The notes beneath the pieces are model-generated. The model searched no databases, was not told where the DNA came from, and saw only the letters and a program-made list of their open reading frames with translations. Positions 4,721-29,465 of a DNA stretch of 64,000 nt are shown here, in pieces; position 1 is the stretch's first letter; each line of letters opens with the position of its first letter. The position numbers and the translations under genes were made by a program. This DNA comes from Candidatus Omnitrophica bacterium UBA6215 (GTDB taxonomy: Bacteria; Omnitrophota; Gorgyraeia; Pluralincolimonadales; Pluralincolimonadaceae), in the NCBI GenBank assembly GCA_002421665.1, contig DISH01000001.1, positions 69,410 to 133,409 on the forward strand, in the 5' to 3' direction.

Positions 4721-5221
4721 ATGGGCAATATTATCCTGGTAGGATTCATGGGGACCGGGAAGACCACCGTGGGCAAGGCGCTTGCAAAGCGCCTCGGCTA
4801 CAGGTTTGTCGACATGGACGACATAATAGAGGAACGCGAGGGGATGAAGATTTCCGAGATATTCGAAAAAAAAGGCGAACAGTACTTCAGGCGAGTAGAA
4901 AGCGAGGTAGCCGCAGATATCCCGTTGCGATCGGGCCTTGTGGTTGCCGCGGGAGGAGGTGCTGTCATTAACGAAGAGAACGTAAGGAACATGAAGAGGA
5001 ACGGGATCATGTTCTGTCTTTTTGCGAGTCCCGAGAGGATATTCGAGAGGACCAAAGGCCACACTCACAGGCCGCTGCTTAATGTGGGCGATCCTCTGGG
5101 AAAGATATCCGAGCTGCTTGCCAGGCGCGCCGAATACTATGCGCGCGCGGACCACAGGATAGACACCACAGACCTGTCGGTCAATGAGGTTGTAGACAGG
5201 ATAGAGGAGCATCTTAAGTGA
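4721..5221 (+). CDS. aroK: shikimate kinase
   Basis: Walker A GFMGTGKTTVGK is present and the size is about 166 aa. Confidence 0.85.
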   Translation: MGNIILVGFMGTGKTTVGKALAKRLGYRFVDMDDIIEEREGMKISEIFEKKGEQYFRRVESEVAADIPLRSGLVVAAGGGAVINEENVRNMKRNGIMFCLFASPERIFERTKGHTHRPLLNVGDPLGKISELLARRAEYYARADHRIDTTDLSVNEVVDRIEEHLK

Positions 5222-6315
5222 CCGATCTCGAATACCTGATAGCTCTTAACTCGGTGCCCGATATAGGGATCATAAGGATAAAGAACCTGCTGGAACGCTT
5301 CGGCGGTTTTGAAGAAATATTCAGGGCTTCCCGTAAGCAACTTATTGAAACGGATAAGATCGGCCCGGCGATAGCCGATGCCGTTATGGCTTGCGACAGA
5401 CTAAAGATTGTCGAGCGCGAGATTAAACTTGCAGAGTTGTCCGGAGCGCGGATAATGTCATATCTTGACGCTGATTATCCGTTGAGCCTTAAACAGATAT
5501 ATGATCCTCCGGCGATATTGTATGTAAAAGGAGAGATTAGGCCGGAAGACGCCAATTCCGTGGCTATCGTAGGTTCCCGGAGGGCCAGCCGTTACGGCCT
5601 CCAGACCGCGGAGAGGTTGGGCATGGAATTTGCCGCGAGGGGGATAACCGTCATATCGGGTCTTGCCAGGGGCATAGATGCCGCAGGGCACAAGGGCGCC
5701 CTTAGGGCCAAGGGCAGGACCATAGCGGTCTTAGGCAGCGGCCTTGCGCAGATATACCCCTCCGAACACCTACGCCTGGCGGGTGAGATAACCGGCAATG
5801 GGGCTATAGTGTCGGAATTCCCGATGGCGTGCGGGCCTCACCGGGAGAACTTCCCCAGAAGGAACAGGATAATAAGCGGGTTGTCTCTGGGTATAGTAGT
5901 TGTTGAGGCGGCGAAGAATTCCGGAGCCCTTATAACTACGGATTTCGCGCTTGAACAGGGAAGGGAACTCTTCGCAGTCCCGGGACAGGCATGTTCGCCC
6001 GTATCCAGAGGGACCAACGCGCTCATCAGGCAGGGTGCTAAGCTTACCGAATCCGCGGATGATGTGATCGAGGAACTCGGCGAGGTTCTAAAGAGCAGGT
6101 TGGTTCCTTCCCGTCCGGATTCGGCGGCTCTCGAGCTGCGCGGTGCCGAGAAAAAAGTGTTCGATCTGCTGGGGGGCGGGCCGGTGTCCGTCGACGAGAT
6201 AATAGATGAGACCGAATTGTCTGTTCCGGAAGCCTCGGTACTGCTTACGGGGCTGGAACTTAAGGGATTGGTAAAACGGCTCCCGGGACAGTCGTACGCA
6301 AGGAAAGATATATGA
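5218..6315 (+). CDS. dprA: DNA processing protein DprA (Smf)
   Basis: GSRRAS...GLARGIDAAGH is the Rossmann-like DprA core. The GTG start overlaps the aroK stop (GTGA). Confidence 0.85.
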   Translation: MTDLEYLIALNSVPDIGIIRIKNLLERFGGFEEIFRASRKQLIETDKIGPAIADAVMACDRLKIVEREIKLAELSGARIMSYLDADYPLSLKQIYDPPAILYVKGEIRPEDANSVAIVGSRRASRYGLQTAERLGMEFAARGITVISGLARGIDAAGHKGALRAKGRTIAVLGSGLAQIYPSEHLRLAGEITGNGAIVSEFPMACGPHRENFPRRNRIISGLSLGIVVVEAAKNSGALITTDFALEQGRELFAVPGQACSPVSRGTNALIRQGAKLTESADDVIEELGEVLKSRLVPSRPDSAALELRGAEKKVFDLLGGGPVSVDEIIDETELSVPEASVLLTGLELKGLVKRLPGQSYARKDI

Positions 6316-8537
6316 TAAAGATATATGTGAACGGAAAAGAGATGCAGGTCAAAGAAGGCATTAGCATAACCGCTCTGTTAGCTGAGCTAAAGGCCGACGT
6401 CAAATACGCGGCCGTGGAACTCAACCTTCAGATACTCGACAGGGCCTCTTACGCTTCGTCACATCTTAAAGACGGCGACAATATAGAGATCATCCTGCCC
6501 GTAGGGGGAGGTTCGCAGGAGGCGCTTGTCATAGTCGAGTCACCGGCCAAGGCCAAGACCATCGAAAAGTTCCTGGGCAAGGGTTTCCTCGTACGTTCTT
6601 CCATGGGGCATATAATAGACCTGCCCATGAGGAAGATGGGGGTTGATATAGAGAATAATTTCGAGCCCAGCTATGTAGTGATATCGAAAAAGAAAAAATT
6701 GCTCAGCGAGCTCAAGAGCGAGGCCAGGGACAAGGATATCATCTATATCGCGACCGACCCCGACCGCGAGGGCGAAGCTATAGGATGGCATCTTGCTTCG
6801 CAGCTTGGCAAGAACAAGGAAGTCAAGCGGGTCGTTTTTCACGAGATAACCAAGAAGGCCATACTTGAGGCATTCGAGAATCCCGCAGAGATAGACATCA
6901 AGCTTGTAAACGCGCAGCAGGCCCGCCGTGTAATTGACAGAATAGTCGGATACTCCCTTAGCCCGTTGCTCTGGAAGAAGATAACTCGCGGGTTGAGCGC
7001 CGGCAGGGTCCAGTCCATAGCGGTAAAAATGATAGTCGACCGCGAACGCGAGATACAGGCATTCGTCCCGCAGGAATACTGGGAGCTTGAGGCAGAGCTT
7101 AAGAAGGGCAAGGACCGAAAGACATTTTTCGCTCAGCTCGACAAGATAGACGATAAGAAGGCCGGGATAAAAGACAAAGCCGCCGCCGACGGGATATTGT
7201 CGGAACTCCAAGGGGCTGAGTACCGGGTCAAGGATATAAAACAGACCGAGAAGAAGCTGAACCCTCAGGCGCCGTTTACCACGTCCAAGATGCAGCAGGA
7301 GGCATTCAACAAACTGCATTTCAGGGCAGGCAAGACGATGAAAATAGCGCAGCAGCTTTATGAAGGCCTCGATATAGGCAAGGAAGGCACCGTGGGCCTT
7401 ATCACTTATATGAGGACCGATTCGGTAAAGGTCGCTTTTTCCGCTATCGAGGAAGCGAGGTTCTATATCAAGGACAAGTTCGGCGCGGATTACCTGCCTT
7501 CCGCGGCCAATGAATATAAATCCAAGAAGGCCGCCCAAGAGGCCCACGAGGCGATAAGGCCGACTTCCGTTTCGAGGGAGCCCGATTCAATAAAGGAATA
7601 CCTCTCGCAGGACCAGTATCGGCTGTATAAGCTCGTTTGGTCGAAGTTCGTCGCCAGCCAGATGAAGCCCGCTTTACTGTCCGTTACATCGGTAGATATA
7701 ATCGCGGGGCGTTGTATGTTCAGGGCGTCAGGCACTTCGGTAGTCTTTTCCGGTTTCAAGGCCGCCTATGATATAGAGGAAGAGGGCGAGGACAAGGAAA
7801 AGACGAAGAAGGCCTATCTCCCCAAGCTTGAGGCAGGAGAAGTCCTTGAACTGATAAAACTGGACCCTACACAGCATTTCACGAAGCCGCCGCCAAGGTA
7901 TACCGATGCCTCTCTCGTAAAGGCCTTGGAAGAAGACGGCATAGGCCGCCCTTCGACATACGCCCCTACGATCGAGACGATAGTTGCGCGTTATTATATA
8001 AGACGCGAAGGTTCTGCCCTTTGGCCGACCGAACTCGGCATAGTTGTTAACGATCTTCTTACCAAGAGCTTCCCGGTAATAATCGACGAGGAGTTCACAG
8101 CTAAGATGGAGGAGGAGCTCGACGAGATAGAAGAGGGCAAAGTGGAGTGGCCGCAGGCGCTAAAGGATTTTTACGGGCCGTTCTCGCAATGGCTTTCTAA
8201 GGCCCAGATAGAGATGAAAGAAGTAAAGAAGGATGTTGAGGAACTTGACGAAGTATGCGAAAAATGCGGCCGGAAGATGGTGGTAAAGTGGGGCCGCCGC
8301 GGGAAATTCAAGAGTTGCTCAGGTTTTCCCGAATGCAAGAACGCCAAGCCTATGGTCACCACCGGTATTAAGTGCCCCGAGCCCGGATGTGACGGTGAGC
8401 TTGTGGAACGCCGGTCGCGCAGGGGGGCGTTCTACGGATGTTCCAGGTTCCCGAAATGCCGCCATGTGGAGAACAAACCCAAGGTTACCGAAGGCGGGCT
8501 TCCGCCCGAAGAGGGTAAACAGGGATCGCGGGAGTAA
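6312..8537 (+). CDS. topA: DNA topoisomerase I carrying an in-frame N-terminal ThiS/MoaD-like beta-grasp domain (aa 1-67, ending VGGG)
   Basis: Residues 1-67 (MIKIYVNGKEMQV...DGDNIEIILPVGGG) have the ThiS sulfur-carrier pattern with a terminal GGG. They are followed immediately by SQEALVIVESPAKAKTIEKFLG, the canonical TopA Toprim N-terminus. There is no stop and no in-frame ATG/GTG/TTG between the two parts. The C-terminus carries zinc-ribbon repeats (CEKCGRKM..., CPEPGCDGEL...). Confidence 0.85.
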   Translation: MIKIYVNGKEMQVKEGISITALLAELKADVKYAAVELNLQILDRASYASSHLKDGDNIEIILPVGGGSQEALVIVESPAKAKTIEKFLGKGFLVRSSMGHIIDLPMRKMGVDIENNFEPSYVVISKKKKLLSELKSEARDKDIIYIATDPDREGEAIGWHLASQLGKNKEVKRVVFHEITKKAILEAFENPAEIDIKLVNAQQARRVIDRIVGYSLSPLLWKKITRGLSAGRVQSIAVKMIVDREREIQAFVPQEYWELEAELKKGKDRKTFFAQLDKIDDKKAGIKDKAAADGILSELQGAEYRVKDIKQTEKKLNPQAPFTTSKMQQEAFNKLHFRAGKTMKIAQQLYEGLDIGKEGTVGLITYMRTDSVKVAFSAIEEARFYIKDKFGADYLPSAANEYKSKKAAQEAHEAIRPTSVSREPDSIKEYLSQDQYRLYKLVWSKFVASQMKPALLSVTSVDIIAGRCMFRASGTSVVFSGFKAAYDIEEEGEDKEKTKKAYLPKLEAGEVLELIKLDPTQHFTKPPPRYTDASLVKALEEDGIGRPSTYAPTIETIVARYYIRREGSALWPTELGIVVNDLLTKSFPVIIDEEFTAKMEEELDEIEEGKVEWPQALKDFYGPFSQWLSKAQIEMKEVKKDVEELDEVCEKCGRKMVVKWGRRGKFKSCSGFPECKNAKPMVTTGIKCPEPGCDGELVERRSRRGAFYGCSRFPKCRHVENKPKVTEGGLPPEEGKQGSRE

Positions 8538-8539
8538 AT

Positions 8540-9415
8540 GTGTTTGACAGATATGTGGAGAAGTTCATAAGGTATCTTGAGATCGAGCGTAACGCCTCAA
8601 AACATACGCTCGTGAACTATTCCATTGACCTTAAGTCCTTGAGTGAGTTCCTCAAGGATGAGCCTATAGAAAAAGTGGATTATGTAGTGTTGCGCCGCTA
8701 CCTGGCCAGCCTGAAAGAGCTGAACCTTTCGAAGGTTTCGATAGCCAGGAAGATAGCTTCGATAAGGTCTTTCTTCAAGTTCCTGTTCAGGGAAGGCATA
8801 ATAAAGGCCAATCCGGCATCTTCCCTGTCGACCCCGAAAAGGGACAAACACCTGCCCAAATTCCTTGATGAAAAGGAGATCGTGCTTTTGCTTGAGTCTC
8901 CCGGCAAGGAGGATGAATCCGGCCTAAGGGACGCGGCCATCCTGGAGACGCTCTATTCGACCGGGATAAGGGTGAGCGAGCTGGTAGGTTTGAACATCGG
9001 CAGTGTCGACCAGATCGGCGGGGTCATAAAAGTATTGGGCAAGGGCAAGAAGGAGAGGATCGTGCCTATAGGCGACCGCGCCCTGCAGGCGGTAAGGGAT
9101 TATCTGAAAAAACGGCGTTTAGCCGGCGGAAAAGATGACCGCGCCCTTTTCTTTAACAAGAACGGGGGCAGGCTCACCGACCGCTCGGTCAGGAGGATAA
9201 TAAATAAATACATTCTCAAGACGAGTATCCAGCAGAAGATATCTCCTCATACCTTGCGCCACTCTTTCGCCACGCATCTTTTAGACCATGGGGCGGACTT
9301 GAGGAGCGTACAAGAGCTGCTGGGCCATGCTAACCTTTCCACGACACAGATCTATACGCACATAACCACAGAGAGGCTTAAGTCCGCATACGAAAAGACT
9401 CATCCGCGGGCTTGA
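8540..9415 (+). CDS. tyrosine recombinase XerC/XerD family
   Basis: An N-terminal SAM-like core-binding domain precedes a C-terminal catalytic region HTLRHSFATHLL...LGHANLSTTQIYTH. The start codon is GTG. Confidence 0.85.
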   Translation: MFDRYVEKFIRYLEIERNASKHTLVNYSIDLKSLSEFLKDEPIEKVDYVVLRRYLASLKELNLSKVSIARKIASIRSFFKFLFREGIIKANPASSLSTPKRDKHLPKFLDEKEIVLLLESPGKEDESGLRDAAILETLYSTGIRVSELVGLNIGSVDQIGGVIKVLGKGKKERIVPIGDRALQAVRDYLKKRRLAGGKDDRALFFNKNGGRLTDRSVRRIINKYILKTSIQQKISPHTLRHSFATHLLDHGADLRSVQELLGHANLSTTQIYTHITTERLKSAYEKTHPRA

Positions 9416-10700: not shown

Positions 10701-11716
10701 GTGAAAAAACGAAGAGATATTTATACGGTTTGATGACAGACGACCCCGCCGTCCACGGTCCGGGAGCGTTATCGCTTAAAGCCCTGTTCCGGGTGCTATC
10801 CAATATATACGGTATGGCGGTCGTTCTGACAGCTTCTTTCTATAGCAGCAGAACGATAAAGCCGTACAGGCCAAAATGCAAAGTAATAAGCATAGGCAAT
10901 ATAACCCTTGGAGGCACCGGCAAGACGCCGTTGACTATCATGGTGGCCCGCAGGCTGAAAGAGTTTGGTAAAAAAACGGTCATCCTGACGAGAGGATATA
11001 TGAAGGACCCGTCCTCGGGTATTGCGGATGAGCCGGAACTCTTCAAAAAAGCTCTCGGGGACATCCCGGTCATTGTGGGCCGTGACCGCGCGGCTTCGGC
11101 CATACGGGCGGAATCCCTGTATTCTCCCGATGTTATTATACTCGACGACGGTTTCCAGCACTGGAGGCTGGCAAGGGACCTTGATATAGTGGCCGTTAAC
11201 GGCAGGGATCCCGTTGGGAACGGCTACCTGATACCCCGCGGTATACTTCGCGAACCCGTCCTGGCTTTGGAAAGGGCCGATATAATAGTTGTCACGAAGG
11301 GCTCAACGCTTCCTGATATCATAAACGAGGCTGTCTCCGGAGCGGACATATATTCTTCTTCATACAGGGTTTCCGGGGGGCCTGATATCAGGGGCAAAAA
11401 GGTGGTCATGGCATGCGCCATAGCGGACCCGTCCTCATTCGAGGAGACCGTCCTGTCGCTCGGCGCCGTTATAGAACGCAAGATGCTGTTTATGGATCAT
11501 CATATTTACGAAAAACACGATTACGATATGATAATTTCAGCGGCAAGGTCTTCAGGTTGCGATACCGTCGTTGTTACCGAGAAAGACATGGTTAAACTTT
11601 CGAGATTCGCGCCGGTAATGGACGTAAAGATAGAATCTATACCCGTGGAGATAAAGATAGATCAGGAGGAGAGGTTTTTTGGCAGACTCGGTTCTCTATT
11701 TACTGGTAAGGCTTGA
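10697..11716 (+). CDS. lpxK: tetraacyldisaccharide 4'-kinase
   Basis: P-loop GNITLGGTGKTP is present and the gene overlaps waaA by ATGA. Confidence 0.85.
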   Translation: MSEKTKRYLYGLMTDDPAVHGPGALSLKALFRVLSNIYGMAVVLTASFYSSRTIKPYRPKCKVISIGNITLGGTGKTPLTIMVARRLKEFGKKTVILTRGYMKDPSSGIADEPELFKKALGDIPVIVGRDRAASAIRAESLYSPDVIILDDGFQHWRLARDLDIVAVNGRDPVGNGYLIPRGILREPVLALERADIIVVTKGSTLPDIINEAVSGADIYSSSYRVSGGPDIRGKKVVMACAIADPSSFEETVLSLGAVIERKMLFMDHHIYEKHDYDMIISAARSSGCDTVVVTEKDMVKLSRFAPVMDVKIESIPVEIKIDQEERFFGRLGSLFTGKA

Positions 11717-13613
11717 GGCTTTCGTATTCAGGCTCCTGCCGCTGGGATTCTCGCTTTGGGTCGCCAGGGCCTTCGGCAGCCTGATATATTATACTATGGG
11801 CCGCCGAAAGACGGTGGCATACGCCAGCCTGCGCGCTGCCTTCAGGGGAAGGTACACTCCCGCGCAAAGTAAACGCATAATAAAGCAGGTTTACCAAAAC
11901 ATAGCCCAGTCTTACATGGAATTGATAAAATTCCCTCAGATAGACGACGCTTATATAAATAAGTATATAAGGATAGAAGGCCGGGAAAAGATAAACAAGG
12001 CGATAAAGGCCGAGGGTACGGGGATAATATTCCTTACGGCGCATTTCGGCAACTGGGAGCTCTGTTCCCTTGTAGGTTCAACTGCCGGATACAAGATGAA
12101 TGTCCTTGCGCGCTGGCAGAAGATGGAGCGGCTCAACGGGTATCTTAACAAGATGCGCGGCTCCAAGGGCGCTAATGTAATTTTTAAGGAAAGTGCCGTG
12201 GAGGATATACTTGCCTGCCTTAATAAGGGAGAGGCTGTCGGCATACTCTCCGATCAGGATGGGGGCAGGAGAGGGGAGTTCGTTGATTTTCTCGGTCGCA
12301 AGGCATCGACCCCGAAGGGCGTCGCGCATTTCTCGCTGCGTACGGGAGCGCCTGTTTTTCCCGTCTTCATGGTCAGGGAGAACGGCCCTTACCACAGGAT
12401 AGTGGTCGAAGACGATATATCGGTGATGAAATCGGATGACCTTAAGAAGGACATACACGAGATACTCCAGCGGTCTGCCGATATACTCTCAAAATATGTC
12501 GCCGACTATCCGGGGCAGTGGCTTTGGCTGCATAAACGCTGGAAGTCCACACCGACCAAGTCGGTCCTGATCCTGAACGACGGCAGGGCGGGCCATTATA
12601 AGCAGTCGGTTTCCCTTGCCCGTATACTTGGCAGCGTCAGGACGGGGAAAGGGTTCGCGCGGGAAGATACCGTAGTCGAGACTGCGCAGGTGAGGTTCAG
12701 GAACCTGTTTGCCAGGGTTTTGTTTGATGCAGGTTCTTTTTGCGGGTTGAGCGTGCATAACCTTTCTTTTTGTTTCGATAGGGAGAGCTACGAGGCCCTA
12801 AAGGGAGTGTACGCGGATTATATTATCTCATGCGGGGCATCGCTTGCAGGCGTGAATCTTTGCCTGAAAAGGGAGTTGGGCGCAAGGAGCCTGGTGATCA
12901 TGAAACCCAGTCTGTTCGACACCAAGTCTTTCGACCTGGCGGCAATACCCGTCCATGACAACGTAAGGCATGCTAAAAATGTAGTCTCTACCAGAGGGAC
13001 GATAACAGACCTCGATGCGGCATCGTTGGAAAAATACGGTTTAAAACTAAAGGGAAGGACCGGTCCTCTCCGGGATAAAGTTATAGGGGTCCTTATCGGA
13101 GGAGATTCCAGGGACTACGTCCTGGACAAGGAGCTTACGGTTTCCGTGATGGATGAGGTTATGCGCGCCGCGGAGAGACTCGATGCCGATGTTTTGGTCA
13201 CTACCTCGCGCAGGACGCAAAGAGCCGTTGAATTCGCGCTGAAAGAGCGCTATAGCAGGTCCGCAAGGGTGAAATTGCTGCTTATAGCCAATGAGGAAAA
13301 TTTCGACGGGGCTGTTGAAGGGATACTCGCGGCATCGGGGATATTGGTAGTATCGGGCGAATCGATAGCTCTGTTGACAGAGGCGGTAAGCTCGGAAAAA
13401 CCTGTCATAGCTTTTATGCCCGCGAAGATAAAACTCTCCTCATCAACCAAGCATGAAAGGTCCCTGAAGCGGCTGGAGGAGGAGAACCTGGTAAAGGTGT
13501 CCGCGCCGGAGGGGATCGAAAAGGATATAACAGGCCATATCGGACGAAAGGTCTCCGGGGTCAGGGGCGAGGACATGAAAGCGATACGCGAAGCGATCGG
13601 GAAACTCGTTTAG
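11679..13613 (+). CDS. lpxL: lipid A biosynthesis (Kdo)2-lipid IVA acyltransferase (LpxL/HtrB family) fused to a C-terminal ELM1/DUF1022-like domain
   Basis: Approximately aa 1-295 carry an N-terminal TM helix and the LpxL motifs LTAHFGNWEL...ILSDQD...YPGQWLWLHKRWK. Approximately aa 300-644 begin ILNDGRAGHYKQSVSLARIL, resembling ELM1-family (predicted GT-B-like) proteins. Confidence 0.7.
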   Translation: MADSVLYLLVRLEAFVFRLLPLGFSLWVARAFGSLIYYTMGRRKTVAYASLRAAFRGRYTPAQSKRIIKQVYQNIAQSYMELIKFPQIDDAYINKYIRIEGREKINKAIKAEGTGIIFLTAHFGNWELCSLVGSTAGYKMNVLARWQKMERLNGYLNKMRGSKGANVIFKESAVEDILACLNKGEAVGILSDQDGGRRGEFVDFLGRKASTPKGVAHFSLRTGAPVFPVFMVRENGPYHRIVVEDDISVMKSDDLKKDIHEILQRSADILSKYVADYPGQWLWLHKRWKSTPTKSVLILNDGRAGHYKQSVSLARILGSVRTGKGFAREDTVVETAQVRFRNLFARVLFDAGSFCGLSVHNLSFCFDRESYEALKGVYADYIISCGASLAGVNLCLKRELGARSLVIMKPSLFDTKSFDLAAIPVHDNVRHAKNVVSTRGTITDLDAASLEKYGLKLKGRTGPLRDKVIGVLIGGDSRDYVLDKELTVSVMDEVMRAAERLDADVLVTTSRRTQRAVEFALKERYSRSARVKLLLIANEENFDGAVEGILAASGILVVSGESIALLTEAVSSEKPVIAFMPAKIKLSSSTKHERSLKRLEEENLVKVSAPEGIEKDITGHIGRKVSGVRGEDMKAIREAIGKLV

Positions 13614-15716
13614 ATGAAGATAGTCCAGATATTGCCGCGCCTTAACACGGGAGGCGTGGAAACAGGGGTGATAGACCTTTCCCAGAGGTTGATCAAGCTC
13701 GGGCATAACGCCGTCGTCATCTCCGGCGGGGGCGAGCTGGTAAAGCAGCTTGAAGCATCAGGGATAAAGCACTATACGCTTCCCGTATACAGCAAGAATC
13801 CCCTTACCATCCTAAGGATGATACCGGTTGTAAAGAGGATACTCAATAAAGAGGGCGCCGACATACTCCACGCGAGAAGCAGGGTGCCGGCTATCATCGG
13901 TTACTATGCTGCGCGTTCCGCAGGCGTAGTTTTCATAACGACATGCCACGGATACTACTCTAAAAAACCTTTCAGCAAAGTCATGGGTTGGGGCAAGTAT
14001 GTAATAGCGATCAGCCAGGTGATAGCGAAGCATATGATGGATGCCTTCAAGGTACCATACAGGCGCATCAAGCTCATATACAGGGGAGTCGACCTCGAAA
14101 AGTTCAGTTACAAAGAGCCGGGAAAATCCGGGAAGTCCGATTACACTATCGGGATAATAGGCAGGCTTACCCCTCTGAAAGGCCATACGTATTTTTTCAG
14201 GGCGGCAGCGAAACTGCTCAGGCACTTTCCGAGGATAAAAGTACTTGTGGTCGGGGATGCCTCTCCCGGCAAGGAAAAATACAGGCAGGAGCTTGAAGAC
14301 CTGGTACGCAGGCTCGGCCTTTCAAGGAACGTCGAATTCTTGGGCAGGCGCGGAGATATACCGGAAATACTCTCCGGCCTTGACGTGCTTGTCTTGGCGA
14401 CGACCGTCCCTGAAGGTTTCGGCAGGGTGATAATAGAAGCTTTTGCGTCGGGAGTACCGGTAGTTGCCACGAGTGTCGGCGGCGTGACCGAAATAATACG
14501 CGACGGCGAGAACGGCCTGCTTGTCCCGCCTGAGGACCCGCAATCGATGAGTGATGCGATAGTCAGGATGCTTAAAGATACTTCGCTTGCGACGGATATC
14601 GTCCGGCGGGCTAGGAAAGACGCCGAGGATAGGTTCAATCTGGACCGCATGATAACCGAGACGGTCAGGGTATACGAAGAGGCGCTTGAGACGAAGAGGA
14701 TATTGGTAATAAAGATAAGCGCGGTCGGCGATTGCATACTTGCCACGCCTTCGCTCAGGGCTATAAGGCAAAAGAACCCCAAGGCTTATATAGCGCTGCT
14801 CACCGGCAGATTGGAGAGCCAGGCGCTGAAGGGGTGCCCTTATATAGACGAGGTAATTATCTACGACAGGAAAGGCCGGGACAGGGGGTGGCTGAGATTC
14901 CTCGAGCTTGCCGCGGACGTGAGGCGTTACTGTTTCGAAGAGATCGTGGATTTACAGAACAATTCTAAGAGCCATCTCTTCGCGTTGTTGAGCACGGCGA
15001 CGAAAAGATACGGTTACAGGAAAGGGTGGCATGGTCTGCTCCTGAACAGATCGATAAAAGACGATAAGCGCCGGATACCCCCGGTGGAGCACCAATTCAG
15101 GGTGCTTTCCCTTATGGGGATAGAGGGTCCTTCAAAGAGCCTTGAATTATGGCCTTCGGTTGCCGATGAGGAAGCCGTTCGGGGTATGCTGGAATCCGAT
15201 TGGGTAGGCGATAACCAGGCCCTAGTCGGTATAAATCCGGCGGCAAGCCCGCGCTGGATGACTAAAAGGTGGCCCGCCGAAAATTTTGCCAAACTGTGCG
15301 ATATACTGGCAGTCCGTGAAATAAGGCCGGTGATCATAGGGACAGCCGCAGATTCCGGGACGGCTAAGGAGATAATATCTTTAACGAGATCGAAACCCGT
15401 AGACCTGACCGGCAAGACCACCATTACCGAGCTTGCCGCACTGATGAAAAGGCTTAAATGCCTGGTGACAAGCGACAGCGCGCCGATGCACGTAGCCGCT
15501 GCGATGGGGACTCCTTTCGTGGCTATGTTCGGTCCGACGGACCCCTCTCGCCATCTCCCGCCTTCCGAGCATTACGCGGTGGTGCGCAAGGCAATGGCAT
15601 GCTCACCGTGCTATAAACCGGTTTGTTCGGATATAAGGTGTATGCGGGAGATATCCGTTGAGGATGTGATGAAAGCCATTGAAGGGCTCCATGCGGGCCC
15701 TAAGGGATCAAAATGA
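13614..15716 (+). CDS. bifunctional glycosyltransferase: N-terminal GT4 (group 1) domain plus C-terminal GT9 heptosyltransferase domain
   Basis: Approximately aa 1-358 carry a GT4 signature (EGFGRVIIEAFASGVPVVAT...GENGLLV). Approximately aa 360-700 carry GT9 motifs (ILVIKISAVGDCILATPSLRAI...SDSAPMHVAAAMGTPFVAMFGPTDP). Confidence 0.75.
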   Translation: MKIVQILPRLNTGGVETGVIDLSQRLIKLGHNAVVISGGGELVKQLEASGIKHYTLPVYSKNPLTILRMIPVVKRILNKEGADILHARSRVPAIIGYYAARSAGVVFITTCHGYYSKKPFSKVMGWGKYVIAISQVIAKHMMDAFKVPYRRIKLIYRGVDLEKFSYKEPGKSGKSDYTIGIIGRLTPLKGHTYFFRAAAKLLRHFPRIKVLVVGDASPGKEKYRQELEDLVRRLGLSRNVEFLGRRGDIPEILSGLDVLVLATTVPEGFGRVIIEAFASGVPVVATSVGGVTEIIRDGENGLLVPPEDPQSMSDAIVRMLKDTSLATDIVRRARKDAEDRFNLDRMITETVRVYEEALETKRILVIKISAVGDCILATPSLRAIRQKNPKAYIALLTGRLESQALKGCPYIDEVIIYDRKGRDRGWLRFLELAADVRRYCFEEIVDLQNNSKSHLFALLSTATKRYGYRKGWHGLLLNRSIKDDKRRIPPVEHQFRVLSLMGIEGPSKSLELWPSVADEEAVRGMLESDWVGDNQALVGINPAASPRWMTKRWPAENFAKLCDILAVREIRPVIIGTAADSGTAKEIISLTRSKPVDLTGKTTITELAALMKRLKCLVTSDSAPMHVAAAMGTPFVAMFGPTDPSRHLPPSEHYAVVRKAMACSPCYKPVCSDIRCMREISVEDVMKAIEGLHAGPKGSK

Positions 15717-27777: not shown

Positions 27778-28674
27778 GTGAAGCATAGGATCAGGCGAAG
27801 GTATCTATATTACCTTCTTAAGACAGCCAGTTTTATCTCGCTTCTCTTTCCGATCAAAATAAACAGGTTTTTGGGCAGGCGGATGGGGGAGTGTGCCTTT
27901 TTTCTGGTAGGCTCCCAGAGAAAGAAAGCGATCTCCAACCTAAGGATAGCGTTTGGCGGCGAAAAGAGCGCCGGAGAGATAAAGGATATCGCTAAGGGAG
28001 TATTCAGGAACTTAGGGGAAAACCTGCTCGAGACGATGAACTCCTCTAAGTTCACCCCCCGCAATATAGACAAATATGTAAAGATAAAAGGTCTGGAAAC
28101 CGTTGAAAAGGTTCTTTCGCAAAAAAGAGGGTTCATCGTCCTCTCCGGGCATTTCGGCAACTGGGAACTTCTGGCCGGTTATTTCGGCATAAAGAAGTAT
28201 CCGGTCAACGTCCTGGCCCGCAAGTTGAGGTATGATAAATACGACACCTGGTTGAACGATCTGCGCAGCAATATGGGAGTGAATGTCATTATGCGCGATG
28301 GTTCGGCTAAGACTATATTGAGGCTCCTGAGGGAAGGCCAGTCAGTGGCGATATTGGCCGACCAGGACATATCGTCGCTTGATGGCGTGTTCGTGGATTT
28401 CTTCGGGCGTCCCGCTTTTACCCCTACGGCTCCGGTAATACTGGCGTTGGCTACCGCGGTGCCTATCATACCGATGTTCATCGTCAGGGAGAAGGACATT
28501 CACACCATATATGTGGAAGAGCCCCTTGAGTTGGAGATAACGGGGAATAAAGAGACGGATATCAAGGTCAATACCCAGAAATGGTCGAATGTCATCGAGT
28601 CGTATATCAGGAAATACCCTTCTCATTGGGTCTGGATCCACGAGAGGTGGAAGACGGAGGCCGATAAGACATGA
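27778..28674 (+). CDS. lipid A biosynthesis late acyltransferase (LpxL/LpxM family), second copy
   Basis: LSGHFGNWELL...AILADQD...YPSHWVWIHERWK are LpxL/M motifs. The start codon is GTG and an N-terminal TM helix is present. Confidence 0.75.
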   Translation: MKHRIRRRYLYYLLKTASFISLLFPIKINRFLGRRMGECAFFLVGSQRKKAISNLRIAFGGEKSAGEIKDIAKGVFRNLGENLLETMNSSKFTPRNIDKYVKIKGLETVEKVLSQKRGFIVLSGHFGNWELLAGYFGIKKYPVNVLARKLRYDKYDTWLNDLRSNMGVNVIMRDGSAKTILRLLREGQSVAILADQDISSLDGVFVDFFGRPAFTPTAPVILALATAVPIIPMFIVREKDIHTIYVEEPLELEITGNKETDIKVNTQKWSNVIESYIRKYPSHWVWIHERWKTEADKT

Positions 28675-29465
28675 ACCGCAGAAAGTTTTTTGTAGCGCTG
28701 CTTATTGCACTGTCCTTTAACGGTTGCGCGGGAAAAGATGATAAAGCGGCCAAGATCCCCGTTGAGGATGAACCGTCATTGACGGCCGACCAGAAAGTTA
28801 TGTCTTTTTCGCTGGCGGGATACGAGAGGAGCGGCAGGAAAAAGTGGGAAGTCCAGGGTAAGTCCGCCGACATAATGTCCGAAGTGGTAAACCTTACCGA
28901 TGTGGTAGCCAAAGCCTACGGCGAAGAGACGGACATGACCCTTACGGCCGACAAGGGAGTCTTTAACAGGAATACCAGCGATGCGCATTTTGAGTCCAAT
29001 GTAGTTGTCTCGGGAACGGACGGGACCAGGATGACCGCCGATGAGGTCGACTGGAAGAATGCCGACCAGAAGATAGTCACCGACAGCGCAGTTACGCTCT
29101 ACGCCGAGAATTTGGAAAAGTCCGAGGACGGCACCGAAAAGAAGATCCCCACGACTATAGTGTGTGACGGCCCCATGGAGATAAATTATGGAAAGAATTA
29201 CGCGGTCTTTAACACGAATGTAAAGGTTGACGACGAACGCGGCCAGATATTCTGCGATACCGCGACGGCATATTATGACCCGGAATCCAGGAAGGTATCG
29301 AGGATAGTGGCTAAAGGCCACGTGAAGATAATAAGAGGCGGCAGTTGGACGTTCAGCGACGAGGCTGTTTACCTGGCTTCCGAACAAAAAGTGATCCTGA
29401 GCGGTTCGCCGAAAGTTACCATATATCCGGAAGAGTCAAAATCCGCGCAAAAAGAGGGCATGTAG
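28671..29465 (+). CDS. LPS transport periplasmic protein of the LptC/LptA (OstA-like) family, putative lipoprotein
   Basis: A signal peptide ends ...FNGC. Two OstA-like motifs follow: LTADKGVF...FESNVVVSGTDGTRMTADEVDW, and NVKVDDERGQIFCDTATAYYD...AKGHVKII. The gene occupies the lptC/lptA slot upstream of lptB. Confidence 0.55.
   Translation: MNRRKFFVALLIALSFNGCAGKDDKAAKIPVEDEPSLTADQKVMSFSLAGYERSGRKKWEVQGKSADIMSEVVNLTDVVAKAYGEETDMTLTADKGVFNRNTSDAHFESNVVVSGTDGTRMTADEVDWKNADQKIVTDSAVTLYAENLEKSEDGTEKKIPTTIVCDGPMEINYGKNYAVFNTNVKVDDERGQIFCDTATAYYDPESRKVSRIVAKGHVKIIRGGSWTFSDEAVYLASEQKVILSGSPKVTIYPEESKSAQKEGM

Follow-up and report, generated by a model that had tools for sequence, protein, structure and literature searches.

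Why would the DNA topoisomerase I of a bacterium begin with a sulfur carrier? This question is raised by a locus of Candidatus Omnitrophica bacterium UBA6215, in which one open reading frame (ORF) runs from a thiS-type sequence straight into topA. The locus lies in a 64,000-nucleotide (nt) stretch of contig DISH01000001.1 (GenBank assembly GCA_002421665.1, positions 69,410 to 133,409 of the forward strand), which we refer to here as the window. A prior reading of these letters, made without database searches (here, the sequence-only reading), offered three explanations for the fusion: a ubiquitin-like (Ubl) precursor processed by a protease, a permanent beta-grasp domain at the N terminus of TopA, or ThiS/MoaD-style activation in cis. 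We find that the in-frame ThiS-TopA fusion is genuine and ancient, and that a large clade of uncultured Omnitrophota shares it.

The identical 741-amino-acid (aa) protein is encoded on 15 independently assembled contigs (from NCBI, JGI, ENA and Logan), and a gene close to the opposite end of the window was recovered on 22 independently assembled contigs. Among the best 120 homologues, 61 carry the ThiS N terminus at 53 to 100% identity, 60 of them with PF02597 and TopA domains recorded, and every named source of these fused proteins is Candidatus Omnitrophota/Omnitrophica. Because relatives commonly carry the ThiS extension, the window protein is one member of a large family. The sequence-only reading would have counted it as a point against itself if the extension were both common in relatives and annotated as a known domain; it is indeed common, but the databases name the fused proteins only "type I DNA topoisomerase." The same reading knew of no earlier ThiS-TopA fusion, and we likewise found no description of one in the literature, including recent Omnitrophota genome papers, which do not mention it. 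The features of the locus are as follows.

5218 to 6315, + strand: dprA (DNA-processing protein A), ending in a TGA that shares the sequence ATGA with the fusion start codon.
6300 to 6307, + strand: Shine-Dalgarno-like AAGGAAAG, 4 nt 5' of the ATG at 6312, read from the sequence, with a putative function in initiation.
6312 to 8537, + strand: the thiS-topA fusion ORF, one unbroken frame of 741 aa.
6312 to 6512, + strand: the ThiS module, aa 1 to 67, with matches to TIGR01683 and PF02597 and a beta-grasp in the AlphaFold2 model.
6504 to 6512, + strand: Gly65-Gly66-Gly67 (GGG GGA GGT), the ThiS di-glycine end, with a predicted cleavage/activation site after Gly67.
6513 to 6524, + strand: linker SQEA, aa 68 to 71, hypervariable across the family.
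6525 to 8537, + strand: DNA topoisomerase I proper, aa 72 to 741 plus the stop codon (TIGR01051, PF01751, PF01131, PF01396).
Within the TopA part: Toprim, aa 72 to 179; Topoisom_bac, aa 194 to 617; two C4 zinc ribbons, to about residue 724.
8540 to 9415, + strand: a xerC/xerD-type tyrosine recombinase gene, conserved 3' of the fusion.

The fusion ORF contains no in-frame stop, and no ATG, GTG or TTG codon lies in frame from codon 36 to codon 97. The next in-frame start is M98, beyond the catalytic Glu76. Thus, TopA in this genome is translatable solely as a fusion. The frame scan agrees with the sequence-only reading, which had seen no stop or start codon between the two parts, and the overlap that it described between the fusion ATG and the dprA stop is present as well, with AAGGAAAG just upstream. 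Its description of a fusion with no linker stands as regards the shared frame and needs one small correction as regards the linker, as the 4 residues SQEA precede LVIVESP. The computed masses are 83,401 Da for the precursor, 7,229 Da for ThiS up to Gly67, and 76,190 Da for TopA from Ser68, and the tryptic peptide that bridges the junction is DGDNIEIILPVGGGSQEALVIVESPAK.

Residues 1 to 67 (MIKIYVNGKEMQV...DGDNIEIILPVGGG) end in IEIILPVGGG and match the thiS equivalog model TIGR01683 along its entire length (profile positions 1 to 64 of 64, ending at residue 67) with 67.9 bits against a cutoff of 37.45, while PF02597 is matched with 48 bits (cutoff, 22.5). TIGR01683 is also matched by 25/25 diverse fusions. 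In 36 nonredundant fusions, the ThiS part is free of indels and never departs from N7, G8, N38, D56, E59, G66 and G67; we take these seven to be conserved positions of the ThiS family, and most of them are also present in the aligned ThiS proteins of solved structure. The nearest solved proteins by sequence are the Geobacter ThiS entries 2K5P and 3CWI (E = 1.4e-8), and further Protein Data Bank (PDB) matches are to ThiS of Rhodopseudomonas (2LEK), B. subtilis (1TYG_B) and E. coli (1F0Z/1ZUD). Each of these alignments runs through the terminal Gly-Gly of the solved protein. By sequence and fold, the module belongs to the ThiS family, as a beta-grasp of about 66 aa that scores above the curated cutoff. 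The Gly-Gly of the window protein is not a free C terminus, since 674 residues come after it, and it could be C-terminal solely after cleavage.

The structural prediction gives the same picture. In the full-length AlphaFold2 model (70-sequence alignment; mean predicted local distance difference test [pLDDT] score, 83.6; predicted template modeling score, 0.76), residues 1 to 62 form a beta-grasp at pLDDT 82 to 89, with strands at 2 to 6, 9 to 13, 34 to 37 and 57 to 61 and a helix at 19 to 25. TopA is confident from residue 70 (pLDDT, ~85 to 95). Residues 63 to 68 (PVGGGS), which we read as a disordered, flexible Gly tail, fall below a pLDDT of 50, and because this tail lies between a confident beta-grasp and a confident TopA, the ThiS-TopA junction is predicted to be exposed. 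A model of ThiS alone (7 sequences) was of low confidence (pLDDT, 56.8), and a Foldseek search with this low-confidence model returned ThiS first, followed by MoaD, TtuB, SAMP2 and ubiquitin. Our structural reading rests on the full-length model and on hidden Markov models, not on the ThiS-only model. Profile searches and structure prediction thus both support the earlier claim that the first 67 codons encode a complete ThiS-type fold.

The remainder of the protein has the features of a conventional topoisomerase. From residue 70, it matches TIGR01051 (topA_bact) with 820.5 bits against a cutoff of 456.4 and carries Toprim (PF01751), Topoisom_bac (PF01131) and two Zn-ribbon (PF01396) domains. 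The ribbon cysteines are invariant in the 70 aligned sequences, as are E76, D149, D151, E153, Y366 (in ITYMRTDS) and R368, which presumably correspond to E9, D111, D113, E115, Y319 and R321 of E. coli. With the domain set above the equivalog cutoff and the catalytic Tyr and acidic Toprim residues intact, the TopA half is, as judged from its sequence, an intact type IA topoisomerase I.

To see what is constrained at the junction, it is useful to compare the glycines with the residues that follow them. The last two glycines are unchanged in 61/61 fusions, and GGG is found in 59/61; the ThiS ends of these proteins are VGGG (48), IGGG (7), MGGG (4), VAGG (1) and VCGG (1). The Gly-Gly is also kept in 5/5 split ThiS proteins and in 12/12 clusters of ThiS that end freely in GGG, and GGG appears again in 5 junction-spanning fragments from a search of 1.84 billion representatives (an output made up mostly of short fragments). 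The glycine codons vary by locus, being GGG-GGA-GGT in the window and GGC-GGC-GGC or GGC-GGC-GGG elsewhere. As these synonymous codons differ between loci, it is the protein, rather than an RNA motif, that is constrained at Gly-Gly.

What comes after the glycines varies freely. Between GGG and the invariant LVIVESP, the 61 fusions have a hypervariable linker (column entropy, ~1.5 to 2.9 bits) with a minimum of 4, a median of 5 and a maximum of 36 residues, among which Ala, Ser, Lys and Gly are frequent. The window linker of 4 residues has the length of the N terminus in unfused TopAs (M-x-K-S before LVIVESP). In one standalone-ThiS lineage of 12 clusters, a stop comes directly after ...VGGG, its TGA overlapping the topA ATG, and other standalone ThiS proteins beside topA end in GGGR, GGGES, GGGI, GGGNRII, or GGG plus 23 residues. 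The family thus has the layout of a Ubl-cargo precursor, with an N-terminal Ubl, Gly-Gly at the junction, and unconstrained sequence downstream. From these comparisons, the sequence after Gly-Gly, from nothing up to a whole topoisomerase, appears to be selectively neutral.

Some further observations concern this same stretch. An ordinary standalone ThiS cluster from Verrucomicrobiae/Rokubacteria (P0126), ~50% identical to the window ThiS, mixes members of 66 aa and 67 aa, and as its 67-aa representative ends in ...GGGS, one extra residue past Gly-Gly occurs outside Omnitrophota too. In one fused homologue (P0048), the linker holds a degenerate copy of the TopA N terminus (GGGAPKPKSLGIVKSPAKSKTIHRKSLVIVESPAKSKT), which suggests that a short stretch was duplicated in tandem there. 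Two candidates for tandem ThiS repeats (P0132 and P0181) proved to be spurious, both being low-complexity repeat proteins.

The genomic context shows that fusion is one of three states of a single slot. The gene order around the locus, aroC-aroK-dprA-(thiS)-topA-xerC-waaA-lpxK, is conserved, with the syntenic dprA genes of relatives matching PF02481/PF17782 and the xerC/xerD-type genes matching PF02899/PF00589 in all related loci. The sequence-only reading had proposed comparing relatives for the fusion versus separate genes, and both are found. thiS and topA are fused in the window and in related loci L006 and L007/L008; a standalone thiS directly borders topA or overlaps it in L001, L002, L009, L010 and L011; and dprA adjoins topA in a third, thiS-less state (L004/L005). 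Example assemblies are GCA_964642015.1 for the fused gene, GCA_964449965.1 for a ThiS that ends freely in GGG, and GCA_964641235.1 and GCA_964625025.1 for tailed ThiS. In L003, dprA and topA are separated by a noncoding gap of 186 bp, which we checked for a decayed thiS and found none. Two further loci (L094/L095) have unrelated upstream genes and no dprA, yet thiS overlaps the topA start in both, which indicates that the thiS-topA pair itself is maintained, beyond mere neighborhood. In one fused lineage (L007 and L008, 9282 to 9968), a gene for a PIG-L/LmbE-family deacetylase (PF02585) lies between dprA and the fusion, with no evidence of a link to ThiS processing.

In a rough neighbor-joining tree of the TopA core, fused and split TopAs fall into one large clade, and the thiS-less TopAs lie mostly outside it. 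Because the split groups are nested among fused subclades, several fusion or fission events are likely to have occurred.

Taken together, these patterns bear on what the fusion is for. The explanation that we prefer, and about which our own confidence is evenly balanced, is that the protein is a ubiquitin-precursor-like polyprotein, which arose by loss of the stop codon in a coupled thiS and in which a peptidase, probably of the JAMM type, cuts after Gly67. To our knowledge, the sole established role of the di-glycine in the ThiS/MoaD/ubiquitin family is to allow the C terminus to enter E1 and downstream active sites and to be recognized by processing peptidases. An invariant Gly-Gly beside a free-running tail is the pattern expected of a trimming activity, as in ubiquitin genes, and such an activity is favored for this reason. 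The ubiquitin-precursor analogy drawn in the sequence-only reading holds in this respect, with Gly-Gly invariant and the downstream sequence variable. Of the three mechanisms it offered, the comparative data speak most strongly for the protease-processed precursor, and we infer the cleavage step itself from them.

The proposed steps can be set out in order. A translationally coupled thiS would lose its stop codon and so form a single ORF with topA. A Gly-Gly-directed peptidase would then cut the resulting 83.4-kDa precursor behind Gly67; the most plausible candidate is a JAMM/MPN+ metalloprotease similar to Mec, DR0402 or HvJAMM1, with its gene in another part of the genome. The products would be a 7.2-kDa ThiS (...PVGGG), its free carboxylate ready for E1-type (ThiF/MoeB) adenylation and thiocarboxylate formation, together with a 76.2-kDa TopA that starts with SQEA-LVIVESP (SQEALVIVESPAK) and has an N terminus of native length. 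The cargo would be merely a constitutively expressed essential gene, and the trimming activity would render anything placed after Gly-Gly selectively neutral. Candidate uses of the released ThiS would be thiazole synthesis with ThiG, other sulfur transfer, or protein conjugation.

Several observations weigh against this explanation. The ORFs scanned or recognized in the 64-kb window include no ThiF/MoeB, ThiG, ThiH, MoaE, rhodanese or JAMM, as had been stated earlier for thiF, thiG, thiH and moaE, and none of these partner genes is found in the 10 kb beyond the 3' end of the window or, in related loci, at a distance of up to 10 kb from topA (up to 4 kb in L009 to L011). N-terminally tagged TopA is generally active, so there is no need for cleavage from the TopA side. 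Switching between a fusion and coupled genes is, moreover, the textbook pattern for subunits that form one complex. Cleavage has been demonstrated for the MoaD-MoaE fusions discussed below, and for ThiS-TopA it is argued from comparison. In addition, thiG is reported in 38/176 complete Omnitrophota genomes, although thiC, thiE, thiL and iscS are nearly universal in the same 176 genomes (bioRxiv 10.64898/2026.06.07.730766).

Among the KEGG Orthology (KO) lists that were readable, one Omnitrophota genome has both thiS (K03154) and topA (K03168). This is genome 231 of Seymour et al. 2023 (PMC10066038), a Velamenicoccia metagenome-assembled genome (MAG; completeness, 92.7%; contamination, 0%). Its KO list includes moeB (K21029, E1-like), mec (K21140, a JAMM hydrolase), moaD (K03636) and K22699, and it is without thiF, thiG, thiH, thiI and moaE; the adjacency of thiS and topA there could not be confirmed. 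We take K22699 to be a sulfide-dependent Thi4. The two sulfur-carrier/Ubl proteins of this genome are thus orphans: an E1 and a JAMM are encoded, but none of the canonical acceptor enzymes. The presence of a JAMM and an E1 together with thiS counts in favor of a processed precursor, but this co-occurrence rests on a single MAG, and its mec may serve the separate MoaD/CysO-like protein. Given the rarity of thiG and the lack of thiF, thiG and thiH in genome 231, the canonical use of ThiS may be absent, which likewise counts against the precursor explanation.

The main rival, which is the second explanation of the sequence-only reading and still a live one, turns several of these same points to its advantage. 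Here, ThiS would be a permanent, uncleaved and noncatalytic N-terminal domain, or a coupled stoichiometric subunit, of TopA, with partner binding, nucleic acid binding or regulation as example roles. We regard this as possible, though rather unlikely. Fused versus tightly coupled adjacent genes are what subunits of a complex classically show, the pair is retained even without upstream synteny, the neighborhood contains neither a protease gene nor an E1 gene, and few genomes of the phylum have thiG; for split forms, tails past GGG would do no harm as long as ThiS did not need a free carboxylate. Beta-grasp domains are also reported to be widely reused as adaptor or RNA-binding modules (PMC1949818). 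A permanent domain nonetheless leaves unexplained the absolute conservation of Gly66-Gly67 beside a hypervariable linker, as a hinge would tolerate Ser, Ala or Asn. The lineage of 12 clusters holds its stop exactly after GGG, the full thiS-equivalog signature is present in 25/25 fusions without drift, and AlphaFold2 confidence is low at the junction, with no evidence of docking.

Less probable, in our view, is a more far-reaching reading, in which Omnitrophota would possess a genuine bacterial equivalent of ubiquitin precursors. ThiS would be made only in fused or tailed form, would be released by a JAMM "deubiquitinase" and activated by a MoeB-like E1, and would act outside thiamine synthesis where Thi4 replaces ThiG. 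Examples of such a role would be SAMP/TtuB/Urm1-like protein conjugation or tRNA thiolation. The supply of ThiS, or its chaperone-like or regulatory effect, would then be linked to TopA biogenesis. We consider this combination unlikely.

Could the fusion instead be a tolerated accident, with a decaying and functionless ThiS read through into TopA? The loss of a stop between overlapping genes is mechanistically trivial, and the linkers are indeed unconstrained. Against this, the ThiS part has no indels and retains its invariant hallmarks and Gly-Gly across the 36 nonredundant fusions, in which TopA identity falls to 53%. The 25/25 fusions that pass the curated thiS model, and the lack of frameshifted or truncated ThiS parts among the aligned fusions, make neutral read-through very improbable.

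Even less credence can be given to separation of the two products during translation, whether by internal initiation, by termination-reinitiation, or by other recoding at the glycine codons. The window codons GGGGGAGG resemble a Shine-Dalgarno sequence, and a few family members have a Met in the linker (P0057, P0103 and P0118). In the window, however, there is no stop and no in-frame ATG, GTG or TTG from codon 36 to codon 97, most linkers are without Met, and the glycines are encoded by GGC GGC GGC or GGC GGC GGG elsewhere, with no conserved nucleotide motif. We therefore rejected GGGGGAGG as a Shine-Dalgarno sequence for an internal start.

The third explanation of the sequence-only reading, activation in cis without cleavage, fails on chemistry: E1-type adenylation requires the free alpha-carboxylate of the last Gly, since this is the group on which ThiF and MoeB build their acyl-adenylate (compare PDB 1JWB). 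Finally, the assembly or sequencing artefact that was initially feared, in which a stop/start pair was deleted at the junction, is refuted to near certainty by the 15 contigs with an identical protein, the 22 independent assemblies of the locus, and ~60 further clusters that share the architecture with differing linkers.

Across the window as a whole (1 to 64000), essentially all of the ~58 credible genes lie on the + strand, in one co-directional array of housekeeping, lipopolysaccharide (LPS) and aromatic amino acid genes. The window holds no tRNA and no Rfam match at the gathering threshold, and an ORF-poor stretch at 49.3 to 50.2 kb corresponds to rseP. The 644-aa product of the gene at 11679 to 13613 has two domains, one a lipid A biosynthesis acyltransferase (PF03279) and the other Mito_fiss_Elm1-like (PF06258), and a gene with this PF03279 plus PF06258 content sits 3' of lpxK in all related loci (L001 to L003 and L006 to L008). 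A 264-aa ORF at 28671 to 29465 has LptC-like (PF06835) and LptA/LptD_N-like (PF03968) domains and looks like an LptC-LptA fusion. Glycosyltransferases of ~700 aa that join a GT4-type domain to a heptosyltransferase domain (PF01075) are conserved downstream in the LPS cluster (L002, 10119 to 12209; L003, 17164 to 21415; L006, 17383 to 19521); the window counterpart, by position only, is probably 13614 to 15716.

The fusion has consequences for annotation and for evolution. Pipelines that assign one function per gene score thiS as absent, which distorts reconstructions of thiamine and sulfur-carrier metabolism in Omnitrophota. The alternation of fused and split genes within a large clade is a natural experiment on the evolution of gene organization in the style of ubiquitin precursors. 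If cleavage does take place, ThiS-TopA would be a defined native substrate with which to find bacterial Gly-Gly peptidases in an uncultured phylum. It also raises the question as to what role ThiS plays in a phylum with thiG in about a fifth of complete genomes.

How does ThiS-TopA compare with known systems? Lineage-specific fusions of TopA are not without parallel, as the chlamydial "DNA topoisomerase I/SWI domain fusion protein" (NCBIfam NF004966) illustrates. The TopA part of the window protein scores 707 bits with this model, below the cutoff of 868, and is not a member. We take the extra domain of the chlamydial protein to be SWIB, at the C terminus.

ThiS and MoaD modules are themselves known from multidomain proteins, and the catalogued fusions comprise ThiS-ThiG, ThiS-ThiF, ThiS-sulfite reductase, MoaD-MoaE and MoaD-AOR (PMC1779556). 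The same module is at work here, but all partners listed in that catalogue belong to sulfur or cofactor chemistry. The word topoisomerase does not occur in this 2006 survey of prokaryotic Ubl architectures (PMC1779556), nor in a 2007 beta-grasp survey. The window protein appears to be the first case of a bacterial ThiS/MoaD-family Ubl at the N terminus of a protein that has no part in sulfur or cofactor chemistry.

The closest precedents for processing are the MoaD-MoaE fusions. Cleavage of fused ThiS/MoaD proteins by JAB peptidases was predicted in 2006 (Iyer, Burroughs and Aravind; PMC1779556). The JAMM protein DR0402 has since been found to cut the Deinococcus MoaD-MoaE fusion (DR2607) and expose its C-terminal Gly, and the archaeal JAMMs HvJAMM1 and PfJAMM1 cut linear fusions regardless of the cargo (PMC8832034). 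For MoaX of M. tuberculosis, cleavage is reported to be necessary for activity (PMC4326299). Like DR2607 and MoaX, ThiS-TopA has an N-terminal ThiS/MoaD-family beta-grasp, a Gly-Gly end, and a downstream protein in frame. Unlike these, whose cargo is the pathway partner of the carrier itself, its cargo is an unrelated essential DNA enzyme.

Carriers that are served by JAMM peptidases also occur in dedicated operons, of which types 4a to 4d have been catalogued (PMC1779556). In these settings, JAMM and E1 genes lie beside the carrier, as in CysO/Mec+ and QbsE/QbsD, whereas dprA and xerC flank the fusion here. The carriers of both pairs are ThiS/MoaD-like, and their Gly-Gly ends are exposed or regenerated by a JAMM.

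The nearest analogy in layout is with the ubiquitin precursors of eukaryotes. In UBA52, RPS27A and polyubiquitin, the Gly-Gly of the Ubl leads directly into a housekeeping protein or a short arbitrary extension, and dedicated peptidases process the product. ThiS-TopA differs in that its module is a ThiS sulfur carrier, that no E2/E3 or deubiquitinase has been identified, and that protein conjugation is not indicated. The likeness lies in an invariant Gly-Gly and in the series of ThiS ends, from GGG and a stop through 1, 2, 4 and 23 additional residues to TopA itself, which mirrors the variable downstream sequence of the ubiquitin genes. The window protein is thus a bona fide TopA that bears a ThiS module, and it belongs within the known class of Ubl-cargo precursors and not to a new one.

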